Below are positions 40,583 to 48,981 of a stretch of DNA of 64,000 nucleotides, one piece after another. Numbering within the stretch: the first letter of the stretch is position 1; each line of letters begins with the position of its first letter. The position numbers and the translations under genes are program-made. The DNA comes from Myxococcota bacterium. Its GTDB lineage: Bacteria; Myxococcota_A; UBA796; UBA2385. Below the pieces are notes generated by a model. It ran no database searches. It saw only the letters and a program-made list of their open reading frames with translations, and had not been told where the DNA came from. Location of the stretch: contig JBIJDH010000009.1 in assembly GCA_044344255.1 (NCBI GenBank), positions 1-64,000 of the forward strand. Direction: 5' to 3'.

Positions 40583-41953
40583 TCACTCGAGGGTGGTGGG
40601 CACCGACCAGAGCGCGCCGTCGAGGCGCCAGAGGAACCGTCGGTCGCCACAGCGGCGCTCGGCGTCGATCCCCAACATCGCCACGAGCGCGGCCTGCTCC
40701 GGCCTGTCCAGCGACGGGGGCTCGACCTCTGGGGGCGGCGCTGCGGTCGAGCCTTGGGACGGGCCCCGCTCGTCGACCACCAGCTCACCGGTCTCGAGGG
40801 AGGCGCGCAGCCACCCGGCCTCGCGGAGCAGCCACAGGTGCCTCCCGTCCCAGGCTCCCTCGAGCGGAGGATCGGCCTCGGGGAGCAAGGCTGCGGGCAG
40901 GCTGTGGTGGGCGAGGGGCTCGCACTCCGCCGACAGGTGAGAGAGGGTCTCTCCGATGAGGGCTGCCCAGCCGGCCTCCCCGAGGGAGACGATCAGGTCG
41001 GCAGACAGCTCGGGCAGGCTCGGGCTCGCGGCGCCGGTCCGGAGGTCCCAGACACGCCCGCCGGGGCCGGCGAGGCGGTCATCGGCGAGGGTGGGGGAGG
41101 TGGGCACGAAGCCGTCCGCGCGGAGCTCCCCCTCGAAGGTGCGCAGCTCACCGGTCGACTCATCGAGGAGCAGCGGCGCGGGATCGAAGCCCACCGGCGA
41201 GAGATCGGCGCCCTCGGCGTAGGTGAGCACCCCGCCTGTGCGGGTGTCGATCAAGGCGAGCCCCTCCTCACAGCGGACGATGGCCCGCTGACCGTCGGCC
41301 GAGAAGCGGGCGCCATCGAGCTCGAGGGCGATCTCCACCGGCACGGGCAGACCGCCGGGCGGCAGGGCCCACTGGCCATCGCGGCTGAGCAGCAGCGCCG
41401 CGCCGCACGGCCCGGCGACCAGGCGCCGCACGTCACTGTTGAGGGAGCCGGCGGATTGGGGGCGCCCACCGGGGGACATCCGGTATAGGCGCTGCTCATC
41501 CGCCCAGATCAGGCCCGGCTGGTCGGTCCAGAGGCCCAGCAGGCCCTCCCGCGGCCCGATCGGCAAGCGCAGGGGCGGTGCGCCCTCTGCAGCGGGTAAC
41601 ACAATGTTATCCGCCCCCTTTCGCCAAGCGACGAGCCCTGCACCAAGCTGGGGCGCGCGGCCGATCCCGCTGATCGACCGCTCCCCGAGCAGCGAGCCGT
41701 CGGGGTCGAGGCGACGGAGGCGCAGGCCGGTGGGCCCCCCCGAGGTCAGCAGGGTCCAGCCCTCGGCCGTGGGCACGAGGCCCAGCACGGCCCCCGTCTC
41801 GACGAAGGTGGCGACCGATCCGCGGAGCAGGAACAGCCCCTCTTCGAAGGGCCAGCAGATCACGCCCTCCGCGGCGATCAGCGCGTCGGGGAGGCCGGGG
41901 GCGAGGAGGCGCGGACCGACGCCCGGGCCCCAGCCGAAGAACAGGCGGTTCAT
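40583..41953 (-). CDS. Hypothetical beta-propeller-like protein
   Basis: ATGA overlap with upstream gene; beta-rich, FSADGQR and VWDLRTG segments. Confidence 0.55.
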   Translation of the reverse strand: MNRLFFGWGPGVGPRLLAPGLPDALIAAEGVICWPFEEGLFLLRGSVATFVETGAVLGLVPTAEGWTLLTSGGPTGLRLRRLDPDGSLLGERSISGIGRAPQLGAGLVAWRKGADNIVLPAAEGAPPLRLPIGPREGLLGLWTDQPGLIWADEQRLYRMSPGGRPQSAGSLNSDVRRLVAGPCGAALLLSRDGQWALPPGGLPVPVEIALELDGARFSADGQRAIVRCEEGLALIDTRTGGVLTYAEGADLSPVGFDPAPLLLDESTGELRTFEGELRADGFVPTSPTLADDRLAGPGGRVWDLRTGAASPSLPELSADLIVSLGEAGWAALIGETLSHLSAECEPLAHHSLPAALLPEADPPLEGAWDGRHLWLLREAGWLRASLETGELVVDERGPSQGSTAAPPPEVEPPSLDRPEQAALVAMLGIDAERRCGDRRFLWRLDGALWSVPTTLE

Positions 41954-43220: not shown

Positions 43221-43306
43221 AGGCCACCCGACCGATGAGCCGGGCGGCGACCCCATGGTCGATGGACCCGTGGGACCGATGGATCTCTGGTTGAATGAGG
43301 TGCGGT

Positions 43307-43921
43307 TTGTCAGTCACGCTGCGTGGGTATGCCTTCCTCGACAGCCTCCAGCCGCAGCTCGCGGCCTTCACGGGCACCACGTGTCGCGGCTTCCTCCCCT
43401 TGGCGGGCCAGGCCTCGCTGTGGATCGAGACGGCCCCCGGCATGATCATCAACCGCGTCACCGACGTGGCCCTCAAGGCCACTCGCGCGGTGCCTGCGGT
43501 CCAAGTGGTGGAGCGGGCCTTCGGCCTCCTCGAGATCCACCACGACGACAAGGGAGAGGTGGTCTCGGCCGGGGAGGCGGTGCTCGCGTACCTCAACGTG
43601 AAGGAAGAGGATCGGGTCCGCCCCAAGGTGGTCTCCAATCAGATCATCCGCGCGGTCGAGCCCTACCAGGCCCAACTCATCAACCGCAACCGCAACGGCA
43701 TGATGCTCATCCCCGGGCAGAGCCTCTTCATCCTCGAGGTCGAGCCCGCCGCCTGGATCGTGGTCGCGGCGAACGAGGCGGAGAAGGCCGCGAACATCAA
43801 CCTGATCAACGTGCAGCCCTTCGGCGCCTTCGGGCGCCTCTGGATGGGCGGCTCCGAGTCCGAGATCGACAGCGCCCGCGACGCCGCGATCGCCGCGATC
43901 GAGGCCCTCTCGGCCCGCTGA
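43307..43921 (+). CDS. BMC shell protein, permuted tandem-domain trimer (BMC-T dp; CcmP/HO BMC-T2-like)
   Basis: [45 protein letters not shown] start after GAGGT. Confidence 0.93.
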
Positions 43922-44033
43922 GCCCTGTCCTCGCGGGCGATTTCCCTCTGAATGATCTCCTGATTTCTGGTCTCCCGCTTTCACTCCGACCCCACAAGTT
44001 CCGATCCCACGAAGGATCAGATGGAGAGTTCAA

Positions 44034-44324
44034 ATGGCTGATGCACTCGGCATGATCGAGACGAAGGGCTTCGTCGCCATGGTCGAGGCCGCCGACGCGA
44101 TGGTCAAGGCGGCCCGTGTGGAGCTCGTCGGCTTCGAGAAGATCGGCGGTGGCTACGTCACCGCGATCGTCCGCGGCGACGTCGCCGCGGTCAAGGCCGC
44201 CACTGAGGCCGGCGCCCGCCAGGCCCAGCGGGTCGGTGAGCTCGTGAGCGTGCACGTCATCCCGCGCCCCCACGAGAACATCGACGAGGTCCTCCCGCTC
44301 GGCCGCACGCCCAAGAAGGCCTGA
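44034..44324 (+). CDS. BMC hexamer shell protein (BMC-H; EutM/PduA/CcmK family)
   Basis: [36 protein letters not shown]. Confidence 0.98.
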
Positions 44325-44327
44325 CCG

Positions 44328-44699
44328 ATGAAGCTCGGGCGGATCGTCGGCACGGTCGTCGCGTCCCGCAAGGACGAGAAGATCGAGAGCCTCCGGCTGT
44401 ACGTGGTGCGCGACGTCTCCGTGGCGCTCGCCAACAAGGACAGCTTCGTGGTCGCGGTGGACGCGGTCGGGGCGGGGGTGGGCGAGCTCGTGCTCTACGC
44501 CAGCGGCTCGTCGGCCCGCCAGACGCGGGCCACCGAGGGCCGCCCGGTAGACGCGACCATCATGGCTATCGTGGACCAGGTTGACCTCGAGGGGCAGCTC
44601 GTCTACGACAAGCACACCGAGGCGAAGGCGGAGATCGCGCGCCGTAACGCCGCCTTCGAGGCGACCGCGGGGCAGACCGCCGGAGAGGGTGAGGGCTGA
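44328..44699 (+). CDS. BMC pentamer vertex protein (BMC-P; EutN/CcmL family) with C-terminal extension
   Basis: [40 protein letters not shown]. Confidence 0.96.
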
Positions 44700-46111
44700 T
44701 GTCCACCGCCAACGTCGATATCACCGATGTCGTGGAGAAGGTCCTCGCCCGAATGAAGGGTGGAGACCTCGGCGCCCCGCGCACCGAGCTCCCCTCCCGC
44801 CCCCTCGGCGTGATGAAGTCGGTCGACGACGCCGTCGCCGCCGCGGGCATCGCCCAGCTCCAGCTCGTGGCGCTGCCGCTCGAGAAGCGGCGGGAGATCA
44901 TCGCCAACATCCGCAAGCGGGCCGCCGAGAACGTCCACACCATGGCCAAGATGGCGCATGAGGAGACGGGGCTCGGCCGGGTCGAAGACAAGATCAAGAA
45001 GAACCTCCTCGTCATCCACCGCACGCCTGGCCCCGAGATCCTCGAGCCCATCGCGATCACCGGCGATGACGGCCTCACGCTCATCGAGCGAGCCCCCTAT
45101 GGGGTCATCGGCTCGATCACGCCGAGCACGAACCCCACAGAGACCATCCTGAACAATGGGATCGGGATGGTCGCCGGTGGCAACGCGGTCGCCTTCAACG
45201 TCCACCCGGGCGCCAAGAAGACGAGCGCCTGGTGCATCGATCTCATCAACCGGGCCACCATCGAGGTGGGAGGGCCCGAGAACATCATGACCTGCGTGGG
45301 CGACCCCTCCATCGAGTCGGCCGGCCTGCTCATGAAGCACAAGTCCCTCCGCATGCTCGTGGTGACGGGCGGCGGGGCGGTGGTGCAAGCGGCCATGCGG
45401 AGCGGCAAGCGCGTCGTCGCAGGCGGCCCGGGCAACCCCCCAGTGGTGGTCGATGAGACGGCCGATCTCGATCGGGCGGCGCGGGAGATCCTGACCGGCG
45501 CCAGCATGGACAACAACATCATCTGCGTCGATGAGAAGGAGGTCTTCGCCGTCGAGAAGATCTTCGACTCGCTGATGGACAAGATGGAGGCGCTCGGCTG
45601 CGTGCGGGTGCGAAACCACCAGATCACCCGCCTCGAGAAGGTGGCGCTCACCCCCGACAAGGAGCACACCAATCGCGACATGGTGGGCAAGTCGGCACGA
45701 GAATTCCTGAAGCAGGCCGACATCCCCTTCAAGGGTGACCCGCGGCTCATCATCTGCGAGGTGCCCTTCGAGCACCCCTTCGTGCAGCACGAGCTGCTGA
45801 TGCCGATCCTGCCCTTCACCCGGGTCAAGGACGTGCATGAGGGCATCGACTTCGCCGTGAAGGCCGAGCATGGCTACGGCCACACGGCCAGCATGTACTC
45901 GCGCAACCTCGACAACCTGCACCGGATGGCCAAGGTCATCAACTGCTCGATATTCGTGAAGAACGCGAACCACTGCGCGGGCCTCGGCTACGGCGGAGAG
46001 GGCTACACGAGCTTCACCATCGCCTCACCGACGGGGGACGGGCTCACGACGGCCCGCACCTTCACGCGGGAGCGCCGCTGCACCCTGGCCGGCTACTTCC
46101 GGATCGTATGA
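44699..46111 (+). CDS. Acylating aldehyde dehydrogenase (EutE/PduP-like)
   Basis: [58 protein letters not shown]-terminal amphipathic peptide. Confidence 0.95.
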
Positions 46112-46116
46112 GGCCC

Positions 46117-46713
46117 ATGACCGAGTCCCCCGCGCTCGCGATGGTGGAGGTGGACTCGGTCGCCCGTGGGCTGCGCACCTTGGACGCCCTCGTCAAGAAG
46201 GCGCCGGTGCGGATCCTGGAGGCGAACCTCATCGAGCCGGGGCGCTTCCTGATCCTCTTCGCCGGCGGTGTCGGTGAGGTGGACGAGAGCTTCATCGAGG
46301 CCGTCGCCGTGGCGGCGGAGGAGCTCAGCGATCGACTCTTCCTGGCCGACGCGCACCCCGCGATCCTCCGCGGGCTTCGCGGATACCTCGATCTCCGGGG
46401 CGCAGACGACATGGACTGCCTCGCCGTGATCGAGGGGAGCCGAGTCGCCTCGACGCTTCGGGCGGTCGAGCGCTCGCTGAAGGAGGCCGATGTCAGCCTC
46501 GCCGGCCTCCGGGTGAGCGGAGGCCTCGGCGGGCGTGCCTACTACGTGGTCTTCGGGGCCCAGCATGACGTCGAGGCGGCGATCGAAGCCGGCAAGGCGA
46601 TCCTCGAAGAGGCGAGACAGCTGAAGAAGGTCGAGATCATCCCCCGCCCGCACCCCGAGATGGTGACGTGGCTGCTGCGTCCGCCGCCCTTCGCGGTGGC
46701 TCGGGAGGGCTGA
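46117..46713 (+). CDS. BMC tandem-domain trimer shell protein (BMC-T s; PduT/HO BMC-T1-like)
   Basis: ALAMVEVDSVARG, PGRFL, GLGGRAY, IIPRPH; alternative ATG at 46108. Confidence 0.9.
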   Translation: MTESPALAMVEVDSVARGLRTLDALVKKAPVRILEANLIEPGRFLILFAGGVGEVDESFIEAVAVAAEELSDRLFLADAHPAILRGLRGYLDLRGADDMDCLAVIEGSRVASTLRAVERSLKEADVSLAGLRVSGGLGGRAYYVVFGAQHDVEAAIEAGKAILEEARQLKKVEIIPRPHPEMVTWLLRPPPFAVAREG

Positions 46714-46991
46714 TGGAGCTGGCGAGAGTGCTGGGCCGCGTGGTCTGCACGGTGAAGTACGAGACGCTCACGGGCGTGCGCATGCTGGTCATCCAGCCCG
46801 TGGACGCCGCGGGGGCCGCTCAGGGCGAGCCGATCGTGGCGACCGATCCCCTCCAGGCGGGGCCGGGTGACCTCGTCTCCTGGGTGGGCGGCCGCGAGGC
46901 GGCGCTGACCCTGCCCAACACCTACGCTCCGGTGGACGCCTCGATCGTCGAGATCGTCGATCATGCGTGGTCGGACCGGAAGTACCTGTGA
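46713..46991 (+). CDS. BMC pentamer protein (BMC-P)
   Basis: MELARVLGRVVCTVK, ATDPLQAGPGD, PVDASIVEIVD; GGGAGG RBS. Confidence 0.93.
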   Translation: MELARVLGRVVCTVKYETLTGVRMLVIQPVDAAGAAQGEPIVATDPLQAGPGDLVSWVGGREAALTLPNTYAPVDASIVEIVDHAWSDRKYL

Positions 46992-47007
46992 ACCCCGGGA
47001 GGTCCCC

Positions 47008-47319
47008 GTGATCCTCTGTCGAGTCGTCGGCAACAGCGTCGCGACGGTGCGGCACCCCTGCTACGTCGGGCGGAGCGTGATGGTCGTCCGGCCCGTCCAG
47101 CCTGACGGCCACACGATCGCAGGCGACGAGTTCCTCGCCGTCGACGCCGTGCAGGCCGGCCCCGGAGACCTCATCCTCGCCTCGCGGGAGGGCAACACCG
47201 CCCGGCAGCTGCTCGGCACCGACAACGACCCCTTCCACGCCGTCATCCTCGGCGTGGTGGACGAGGTGAGCGACGAGACCCGCGGGATGCGGGGCACCCT
47301 CGGCGGGGGCGCGCCTTGA
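47008..47319 (+). CDS. BMC pentamer protein (BMC-P)
   Basis: CRVVGNSVATVRH, AVDAVQAGPGD, REGNTAR, ILGVVD; GGAGG before GTG. Confidence 0.92.
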   Translation: MILCRVVGNSVATVRHPCYVGRSVMVVRPVQPDGHTIAGDEFLAVDAVQAGPGDLILASREGNTARQLLGTDNDPFHAVILGVVDEVSDETRGMRGTLGGGAP

Positions 47320-48098
47320 GCCTGCCCATCGACGAAGAGCAGCTTCGGACCGAGATCGTCGCCCGCTCCCACCAGCTCTCTGCCCGCGGCTGGGTGGCGA
47401 ACCACGACGGCAACCTCACCGCCCGGCTCGGCGGCGGGCGCACCCTGGCAACCCCCACCGCCGTGAACAAGGGCGACGTGCGGCCGGAGTGGCTGATCGT
47501 GCTCGACGAGTCGGGCAAGGTGATCTCCGGCACCCGCAAGCCCTTCGGCGAGCTGGTGCTGCACCGCGCGGCCTACGCGGCGCGGCCTGACATCGGCGTC
47601 GTCTTGCACGCGCACCCGCCGCACGCGACGGCCTTCGCCCTCGCCGGGCAGCCGATCGGCCACCCCTTCCTCGCCGAGGCGGTGGTGAGCCTCGGCCCTG
47701 AGCTGCCGCAGATCCCCTACCGGCGCCCCGGCAGCGAAGAGACCAGCCGCGAGCTGGCGGCCGCCCTCCAGCGCGCCGACGTCGTGATCCTCGAGGGGCA
47801 CGGGCTGCTCAGCGTCGGCGGCAGCTTCGAGCAGGCCTTCCTCCGGATGGAGCTGGTGGAGCACCTCGCCCGCTTGAGCTGGCTCGCCCGCCCCCTCGGC
47901 GGCGCCCGCCCCCTGCCCGAGGCCGACGTCCGCGCGCTCGCCGAGAAGGGCCGCCCCGCCTCCGCTCCCGACTGGAGCGGCGGCGCCCACGGCCCGGCCA
48001 GCAGCCCCTCGCTCGCTGCGGGCGCGCCGCCGCCCAGCCCGGCTCACCGGCCCGACGTGCGCTCCCTGGTCGAAGAGGCGATGCGCCGGGCGCGCTGA
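47316..48098 (+). CDS. Class II aldolase/adducin family protein (FucA/AraD-like) with C-terminal extension
   Basis: DGNLT, ATPT, GELVLH, LHAHPPHATAF, GHGLL metal-binding motifs. Confidence 0.92.
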   Translation: MSLPIDEEQLRTEIVARSHQLSARGWVANHDGNLTARLGGGRTLATPTAVNKGDVRPEWLIVLDESGKVISGTRKPFGELVLHRAAYAARPDIGVVLHAHPPHATAFALAGQPIGHPFLAEAVVSLGPELPQIPYRRPGSEETSRELAAALQRADVVILEGHGLLSVGGSFEQAFLRMELVEHLARLSWLARPLGGARPLPEADVRALAEKGRPASAPDWSGGAHGPASSPSLAAGAPPPSPAHRPDVRSLVEEAMRRAR

Positions 48099-48112: not shown

Positions 48113-48844
48113 TCACTGCAGGGCGGCGAGGTTCGTGTACGGGCGGGGCGCGCGCCAGTGGATCGCGGCCGCGACGCCGTAGAGGGTGGTGGTGGCCGGC
48201 GAGACGCCGTAGTCGGTGACCCAGTCGGAGGTGGTGGAGAAGCTGTAGACCGTGCCGCCGTTACCGCCCGTGGAGCCCGTCGGGGTCGAAGCGGAGAAGC
48301 TGGTCTCGGTGGGCCCCATCACGGCGCCGGCGAAGAGGTCGCTGTACAGCCAGCGTTGGGCCTGAACGGCGCCACCGGCCAGGTTGCCCATGTAGCTCAC
48401 CACGACGTCGGCCTCGCCGTCGAGGTCGAGGTCGCCGAGGGACACCGCGAGGGCGGGGACGCCGTGGTTCGCCGCGTCGGTGGCCGAGAAGAAGGCGGTG
48501 GGGAGGCTCACCCCATCGATGACGAGCAGGCCAGGCTGGGGCGTGACGGCGGCCAGATCGGCCTCGACCATCCACGCGGCGAGGGCGCTGGCCACGAGCG
48601 CGTCATCGGAGGTGTCCCCCCAGAGGCCGTCGAGCGAGCCCTCGGCGAGGCGCGCGACACAGAGGCTCTTGGAGCCTCGCTCGTTCAAGGTGCTCAAACC
48701 GTCCGCGTCCGCACAAGCCACGCGTGTCGATGCGACACCCGAGGTGGAGCCGGTGAGGGGGCTCGGAGAGGCCTGGGCCACTGCCCCAACAGACACTGCG
48801 ACAAAAGCAACACAAGAAGCAGCACAAATTGTGAAGAGTCGCAT
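48113..48844 (-). CDS. Hypothetical secreted protein
   Basis: GAGG before ATG; signal peptide ending AQA; one GDLDLDGEADVVV FG-GAP-like motif; Ser/Thr-rich tail. Confidence 0.65.
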   Translation of the reverse strand: MRLFTICAASCVAFVAVSVGAVAQASPSPLTGSTSGVASTRVACADADGLSTLNERGSKSLCVARLAEGSLDGLWGDTSDDALVASALAAWMVEADLAAVTPQPGLLVIDGVSLPTAFFSATDAANHGVPALAVSLGDLDLDGEADVVVSYMGNLAGGAVQAQRWLYSDLFAGAVMGPTETSFSASTPTGSTGGNGGTVYSFSTTSDWVTDYGVSPATTTLYGVAAAIHWRAPRPYTNLAALQ

Positions 48845-48981
48845 GGTGTCCTCGGTTTGTTTCGGGTACACCACACTAATGCACGAGTCGTGCCAGCCTT
48901 CCAGGTCCGGCGGCGGCCTGAGGACCGCCAAACACCTGCACAGCGCGCCTCTCTACGGCTGCTGTGCAGAACTGTTCCGAC

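Follow-up and report, generated by a model that had tools for sequence, protein, structure and literature searches.

A type II HO microcompartment operon in a Myxococcota genome and a candidate role of its organelle in deoxyribose-5-phosphate breakdown

The window analysed here, a stretch of 64,000 nucleotides from a Myxococcota bacterium (contig JBIJDH010000009.1), carries an operon of eight genes for a bacterial microcompartment (BMC), which almost certainly represents a type II HO main locus. We give a probability of about 65% to the reading that the HO organelle is an SPU-like metabolosome with dispersed cargo, which splits deoxyribose-5-phosphate and traps the acetaldehyde as acetyl-CoA. 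The HO organelle is the main structural model for BMC shells, and its function was termed enigmatic in 2021 (PMC8217296). The value of the present genome is indirect; its unlinked enzymes point to the breakdown of sugars from nucleic acids. In the following, G000 is the genome of the window, other G numbers are compared genomes, C numbers are contigs and L numbers are extracted loci.

The operon consists of eight co-directional open reading frames (ORFs) on the + strand, at positions 43307-48098 of the window, with these features:

43307..43921, + strand: BMC-Tdp, a double-stacking trimer of the main-locus type, orthologue of HO-5816; TTG start, with an in-frame ATG at 43295
44034..44324, + strand: BMC-H, orthologue of HO-5815 (Pfam)
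44328..44699, + strand: BMC-P (P1; Pfam), top match in the Protein Data Bank (PDB) an HO shell pentamer; variable C-terminal tail
44699..46111, + strand: CoA-acylating aldehyde dehydrogenase (ALDH) of the EutE/PduP subfamily (PRK15398); catalytic Cys276 kept
44717..44755, + strand: encapsulation-peptide-like helix at the ALDH N-terminus (residues 7-19), predicted from the tag profile described below
46108..46713, + strand: BMC-Ts, PduT-like (Pfam), with an EPG motif in place of the pore cysteine
46713..46991, + strand: BMC-P (P2; Pfam), part of the pentamer triplet
47008..47319, + strand: BMC-P (P3; Pfam), part of the pentamer triplet; GTG start
47316..48098, + strand: AldA, a class II aldolase-family protein of an HO-specific clade (Pfam); metal ligands E79, H98, H100 and H162 present
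48054..48092, + strand: encapsulation-peptide-like helix at the AldA C-terminus (residues 247-259), after a Pro/Ala/Ser-rich linker; predicted from the tag profile and alike in relatives

All eight proteins scored above the Pfam cut-off, three as PF00936 (BMC), three as PF03319 (EutN/CcmL), one as PF00171 (Aldedh) and one as PF00596 (Aldolase_II). The intergenic distances from 5' to 3' are 112, 3, -1, -4, -1, 16 and -4 nt, and the neighbours on either flank lie on the opposite strand and are not BMC-related. The first-pass annotation had described eight tightly packed co-directional genes with these identities, and the ORFs, Pfam and NCBIfam agree with it. The operon is confirmed as real and intact, far beyond chance. 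For the Tdp, BMC-H and P1 proteins, the top PDB matches were HO-5816 of Haliangium ochraceum (E 8e-88), HO-5815 (E 1.7e-45) and the HO shell pentamer chain 5v74_A1 (E 4.5e-27), respectively. The TTG start of Tdp agrees with the HO N-terminus, and a purine-rich stretch lies 5' of it. The Ts protein matched PduT best (E 2e-26) and the entry 5dih more weakly (E 5e-19); no PduS partner for it was found in G000. The ALDH reached 640 bits against PRK15398 (cut-off 403) and shares 48% identity with EutE, the acetaldehyde dehydrogenase of Escherichia coli.

The type assignment follows Sutter et al. 2021 (PMC8217296), who sorted 41 HO loci into 30 of type I and 11 of type II. The operon holds one H, three P and one Ts protein, an ALDH with a predicted N-terminal encapsulation peptide and a PF00596 aldolase, which about half of the type II loci have in the main locus (5 of 11; PMC8217296). 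Besides its main-locus Tdp, the genome encodes a distinct satellite Tdp. Type II HO loci share all of this, as well as the lack of PTAC, and the operon showed no differences from them; the HO typing of the shell proteins is by the PDB best matches of Tdp, H and P1, which are all HO proteins. Read from its 5' end, the operon is a type I main locus (Tdp-H-P-ALDH-Ts) followed by a type I satellite (P-P-aldolase). In more distant genomes of the phylum, these two occur apart from each other, and the satellite is regarded as a fission product of the type II arrangement (PMC8217296). The BMC of Haliangium ochraceum (type I HO; PDB 5V74, 5V75, 5V76 and 5DJB) has orthologous Tdp, H, P and satellite Tdp proteins and an equal parts list. 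It differs in that P-P-aldolase is a satellite there and that its Ts is only distantly similar. The earlier description of an HO-type locus whose parts list is split in H. ochraceum was therefore correct.

The gene order in the corresponding regions of 33 relatives was read by tblastn and counted by hand. All eight genes stood in the same order on one contig in 13 of them, in one more with a 678-bp gap before the aldolase and in another across a contig break. Three were cut by contig ends yet consistent, and two lacked only the upstream Tdp. A seven-gene shell/ALDH operon with the aldolase elsewhere was found in nine, and four ended before P3. Novelty had been claimed for the consolidated layout, which is, however, catalogued as type II HO (PMC8217296). 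The synteny survey that had been proposed found it common among the relatives, with the aldolase directly after P3 in 20 of the 29 readable loci, while the split type I form predominates further out in the phylum. The layout is already known and ordinary for the lineage, and the operon is not new in kind. An ALDH match (E<=1e-80) was present in 34 of 41 related genomes and in 20 of the 21 of the same family. The three of the 41 that make up family f4 were without shell, ALDH and the AldB and DeoC introduced below.

The genome, which is about 95% complete, was also searched for shell and cargo genes outside the window. The following were found:

G000, contig C19, 18642-19286: satellite BMC-Tdp (tblastn), 51% identical to the operon Tdp; top PDB match 5V76
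G000, contig C46, 10146-11024: DeoC, deoxyribose-phosphate aldolase, with a predicted tag; directly upstream of thymidine phosphorylase
G000, contig C46 (7918-10022 of L094): deoC-deoA without an intervening deoB
G000, contig C26, 165194-166120: AldB, a second class II aldolase with a predicted tag, 35% identical to AldA; unlinked (1117-2043 of L011, minus strand)

The Pfam PF00936 search of the genome had missed the satellite Tdp, which tblastn recovered. DeoC scored 262 bits against TIGR00126 (cut-off 117) and has an N-terminal extension of about 70 residues. The only other PF01791 protein of G000 has no extension and resembles class I fructose-bisphosphate aldolase. AldA and AldB are the only two PF00596 proteins of the genome, and AldB ends with a cysteine-containing linker followed by a helix. 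The operon had been thought nearly self-sufficient, which it is not, since the second Tdp, the tagged DeoC and the second tagged aldolase are encoded on other contigs.

To compare the enzyme tails, we built a 13-residue profile from 109 tag-like helices of relatives, the seeds being picked by an amphipathic-pattern rule, and ranked 7385 ORF termini. With the full profile, DeoC took rank 1 and ALDH rank 2 of the 7385 N-termini; at the C-termini, AldB came first and AldA second. When the seeds of the own family were removed, DeoC ranked 2, ALDH 10, AldB 14 and AldA 15. Since the seeds were chosen by the amphipathic pattern, the scan shows a mutual likeness of the four predicted tails, not targeting. 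Lower-ranked matches (an efflux adaptor, an aminotransferase and four ORFs without an NCBIfam match) were checked and not accepted as cargo. The sole iron alcohol dehydrogenase of G000 was outside the top matches of the scan. ALDH, DeoC, AldA and AldB with their predicted tags form a short, testable cargo list for the HO organelle.

Deoxyribose-5-phosphate breakdown by these enzymes would proceed as follows. Cytosolic nucleoside phosphorylases, together with a phosphomutase, would convert deoxynucleosides to deoxyribose-5-phosphate, which would enter through the wide Tdp pores. Encapsulated DeoC would split it into glyceraldehyde-3-phosphate and acetaldehyde, and the ALDH would convert the acetaldehyde to acetyl-CoA. 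Neither PduL, PduS, EutBC, AckA nor a stand-alone Pta was found in G000, where the sole Pta-like domain belongs to a malic-enzyme-like frame. Because PduL, stand-alone Pta, AckA and PduS were not found, CoA and NAD would have to be exchanged across the shell. Both class II aldolase-family proteins would be accessory cargo. AldB would most plausibly cleave a ketopentose-1-phosphate from MtnP and MtnA and deliver a second aldehyde to the same ALDH, of which we are less sure; AldA may serve a structural purpose or act with an altered pocket for its substrate.

The occurrence of DeoC among other genomes was then analysed. It had a match in 35 of the 41 related genomes, and a pyrimidine-nucleoside phosphorylase lay downstream of it in all 29 loci extracted from relatives (34 relatives with a match). 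In eight of these 29 loci, a 1.2-kb gene stands between the two, which was the phosphopentomutase DeoB in the two that were tested. In a sample of 151 genomes of the phylum, which are related and not independent trials, DeoC was present in 59 of 60 ALDH-positive genomes versus 27 of 91 ALDH-negative ones. A match that reached into the N-terminal extension (start at or before query residue 63) was found in 56 of the 59 and in 5 of the 27, respectively. In at least four of the 60 ALDH-positive genomes, the locus is of SPU type and itself contains RpiB-DeoC. In all five type I genomes that were inspected, an unlinked or adjacent DeoC starts with a tag-like helix. DeoC tracks the HO organelle across the phylum.

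Several points weigh against the deoxyribose-phosphate reading. All tags are predicted from a profile of 13 residues, in which AldA, AldB and ALDH reach only the ranks given above when their own family is left out. The ordinary cytosolic deo pathway, too, has DeoC beside thymidine phosphorylase. No deoB was found in G000, though it probably stands between deoC and the phosphorylase in eight of the 29 relatives, and the candidate stand-in is only a phosphohexomutase-family protein of 732 aa on contig C70 (846-3044 of L236). The RpiB of G000 lacks an extension, unlike that of many SPU types. A DeoC match is also lacking in G044, an ALDH-positive genome, and the five ALDH-negative genomes with an extended DeoC count on the same side. 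Finally, the co-occurrence counts overstate the support because kin are not independent.

The connection itself is not new. A DeoC/SPU link for the HO organelle was already suggested in 2021 (PMC8217296). Dwyer et al. 2024 (PMC11585597) report that the deoxyribose-phosphate aldolase (DERA) of SPU6 is active, with Haliangium unmentioned in the excerpted passages, and a 2025 preprint (PMC12747264) counts related loci of Myxococcota and archaea among the SPU types. Compared with SPU5 and SPU3 (PMC8217296; PMC11585597), G000 shares the shell/ALDH order (with SPU3-like loci) and the N-terminally tagged DeoC, and both its aldolases, AldA and AldB, have orthologues that stand in tandem in SPU5-like Oligoflexia loci. 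However, whereas SPU types have the DERA (PF01791) in the BMC locus, DeoC of G000 lies outside it, on contig C46, with a tag-like helix. RpiB (PF02502), which is linked or tagged in SPU types and absent in SPU5, is in G000 a single untagged 147-aa protein without an extension, encoded between fabF and glyA-like genes. Also missing are PduS and DeoR. Judged from the genes, the best reading is that the organelle works like an SPU without being classed as one.

Among distant named loci with the order Tdp-H-P-ALDH-Ts-P-P (Calditrichia, Neomarinimicrobiota and others), DeoR and an RpiB-DeoC fusion stand in front, which makes them SPU3-like. Some of them also carry a phosphomutase, a nucleoside phosphorylase or a class II aldolase. 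Three Oligoflexia loci (L039, L046 and L051) have DeoC-Tdp-AldA-AldB in one run and are SPU5-like.

To place the two aldolases, we calculated a FastTree phylogeny of 171 of the 202 collected aldolase proteins, in which the reference enzymes sit on long branches and their placement is unsure. AldA falls into a clade of its own (support 99, 52 rows), to which the first of the Oligoflexia copies and the satellite aldolases of type I also belong. AldB clusters with SPU3-type aldolases and the second of the Oligoflexia copies. Both are remote from FucA and OtnC of E. coli and from the aldolase beside mtnA of an E. coli strain. In FucA, the phosphate-binding residues are Thr43, Gly44, Ser71 and Ser72. 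Among the closest 120 AldA homologues, position 44 is Ala in 117 and position 71 is Phe, Met or Pro in all 120, never Ser; in AldA of G000, the Ser71/Ser72 positions are Phe77/Gly78. AldB, with Ala at position 43 in this order, keeps Gly44, Ser/Thr71, Ser72 and all metal ligands. With its phosphate-loop positions changed where those of AldB are mostly kept, the linked AldA is the odder of the two aldolases. It diverges most among the enzymes of this set, and the signature enzyme may be another one. The first-pass annotation had expected the aldolase link to guide the search for the function. The aldolase is indeed linked, but this emphasis was probably misleading, and AldA may be the wrong enzyme to assay alone. 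In the literature searched, we did not find a description of the separate AldA clade and its altered phosphate loop (Ser71 to Phe), nor of the combination of MtnP and MtnA with missing MtnB, MtnD and fucose/rhamnose genes. The excerpts of PMC8217296 give one PF00596 aldolase per locus and contain no mention of a second unlinked tagged aldolase or an altered pocket.

AldB had a match in 32 of the 41 relatives. Two aldolase matches per genome are common across the phylum, and family f36 has mostly AldA alone. An obligate AldA-AldB heteromer was considered and is doubtful, since the f36 genomes show AldA alone. The linker of AldB contains a CxxCxxC-like motif before the C-terminal helix, conserved in most relatives, which could bind metal. 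Cysteine clusters also occur in the DeoC extensions of distant genomes, and DeoC of this order is without them. A 504-aa membrane protein without an NCBIfam match (contig C26, 7684-9198 of L095, minus strand) lies downstream of AldB and overlaps its stop, and a similar frame lies beside AldB in 15 of 28 relative loci.

A broader scheme is a tentative possibility: the HO organelle could be a nucleoside-salvage compartment with two inlets, in which AldB, besides DeoC, cleaves 5-deoxyribulose-1-phosphate, methylthioribulose-1-phosphate or ribulose-1-phosphate from MtnP and MtnA, and AldA is perhaps a partner or scaffold of AldB. G000 encodes a methylthioadenosine (MTA) phosphorylase (MtnP; TIGR01694 above cut-off) and two MtnA proteins. 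MtnD was not found in G000 and is present in five of the 41 genomes, none of them of the same family. MtnB was not found either, the only PF00596 proteins of G000 being AldA and AldB, with AldA far below the MtnB cut-off. Since MtnD and MtnB were not found, the MtnA product has no canonical route. A known alternative is an aldolase that yields dihydroxyacetone phosphate (DHAP) and acetaldehyde or methylthioacetaldehyde (PMC6079011, PMC10986504), and such DHAP-shunt clusters were noted in Myxococcus xanthus (PMC6079011). The DHAP shunt, or 5-deoxyribose salvage (DrdA, PMC6079011; Ald2, PMC10986504), shares with G000 the MTA phosphorylase, MtnA, a class II aldolase and the lack of MtnB and MtnD. 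It differs in that the genes of G000 are unclustered, AldA and AldB fall outside the FucA/Ald2 branch and the known shunts are described as cytosolic in the excerpted passages.

Genomic context speaks against the shunt. In 30 MtnA loci, no aldolase was found within 1.5 kb, and MtnA is also present in genomes without a BMC. The neighbours of the wider aldolase group are mostly shell genes: in 80 metagenome loci, BMC-H was nearby in 25, mtnA in one and fucose genes in one, so this clade does not fix the substrate. The aldolases that do lie beside mtnA (L347, L398 and L399, two of them on plasmids) are distant relatives, 38-42% identical to AldB, and an AldB-like gene lies 2.5 kb from mtnP in L378. 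The word microcompartment is absent from the excerpted passages of PMC6079011 and PMC10986504, and our search, which covered mostly open-access and few subscription journals, found no literature joining a BMC to the DHAP shunt. If the two-inlet scheme were true, by-products of S-adenosylmethionine or RNA-derived ribose would be processed inside a shell by an encapsulated DHAP shunt. The BMC used as a structural model would gain a complete enzyme list, with its supposed aldolase AldA a changed or inactive paralogue. Three leads bring the HO function closer to a direct test: this possible shunt, the second tagged aldolase and the altered AldA pocket.

We regard it as unlikely that the operon is functionally complete, with AldA as the signature enzyme acting on a possibly unphosphorylated or differently phosphorylated substrate and with DeoC and AldB as side cargo. 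Conservation argues for such a role. In the closest 120 homologues, the catalytic Glu (FucA Glu73) is kept in 120 and the three metal-binding His in 120, 119 and 120, and His-Asp is invariant at FucA positions 26-27. AldA also adjoins the P2-P3 pair in 16 of the 20 phylum loci examined, and 1926 proteins match it at E<=1e-30. However, the third His (His155 in FucA numbering) is Asn in 7 of 55 AldA-like rows, which include three f36 genomes in which no AldB was found (17 candidates scored per genome). Moreover, 9 of the 29 readable relatives carry the seven-gene operon without the aldolase, and a PF00596 aldolase is present in only 29 of the 41 catalogued HO loci (PMC8217296).

A PVM-like function is very improbable. 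Here the class II aldolases would cleave fuculose-1-phosphate or rhamnulose-1-phosphate and the ALDH would make lactyl-CoA from lactaldehyde, as PVM and GRM5 types do with PF00596 aldolases (PMC8217296). AldA homologues are automatically named L-fuculose-phosphate aldolase. One member of the wider aldolase group, in 80 metagenome loci, stands next to fucI-fucK-fucU. Against a PVM-like function, fucose isomerase was absent from all 41 genomes and rhamnose isomerase from G000, FucI and FucU were not found in G000 by tblastn and its sole FGGY kinase is glycerol kinase. PTAC (PF06130) was not found either, and both aldolases are far from FucA in the tree. These results argue against fucose or rhamnose use.

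Hardly more plausible is the condensing direction, in which the class II aldolases would form fructose-1,6-bisphosphate from triose phosphates derived from the DeoC product. This was proposed for SPU types with a class II aldolase and Tdp (PMC11585597). PF00596, however, has the FucA fold, and there was no fructose-bisphosphate aldolase family among the NCBIfam rows shown. Triosephosphate isomerase was not among the top tag-scan matches; no separate search for it was made. A distal EUT/PDU module for the use of ethanolamine or propanediol is scarcely credible, for although four HO loci carry an EutBC module (PMC8217296) and the ALDH is EutE-like, EutB, EutC, the EutL-type shell protein, EutS and EutQ were unmatched in G000 at its 95% completeness, and so were the PDU features PduL and PduS, while no search was made for PduCDE or any diol dehydratase.

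The operon may be expressed, on weak evidence. Short RNA-library contigs from four freshwater metatranscriptome runs are near-identical to it, some spanning adjacent genes, and two further runs contained next to no sequence words of it. This evidence is weak because DNA can be present in libraries of this kind and the window itself was used to choose the runs. The flanks were not covered, to which we give no weight. A search for a sigma-70-type promoter found none, and no terminator scored above chance. As a compact shell chassis, for which it had been recommended, the operon adds little, H. ochraceum shells being already the model system.

Around the operon, ORFs of 272 and 456 aa (48113-48931 and 40583-41953, minus strand) have no Pfam or NCBIfam match. 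The flanking PQQ-repeat protein, glycerol-3-phosphate dehydrogenase and glmS were considered as partners and rejected: of 35 relative loci, five had glmS upstream and none had either of the other two. The C-terminal tail of P1 (window 44616-44699) is charged and about 28 residues long, and it differs in length and sequence across relatives.

Some of the compared genomes have arrangements of their own. In L357 (G080, contig C126, same class), the order H-P-ALDH-PduS-Ts-P-P-aldolase is a PduS-bearing form that resembles SPU5. G023, G148 and G160 have extended DeoC and aldolase matches without an ALDH match; in G023 the shell genes lie near a contig end, and assembly gaps are likely. A 206-aa untagged AldB relative in L147 (G024, contig C86), in a genome without shell genes or MtnD, offers a natural control for a cytosolic form. 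In three f19 genomes (L366, L367 and L371), a pyrimidine-nucleoside phosphorylase is encoded 2-3 kb away from the satellite P-P-aldolase, on the other strand.

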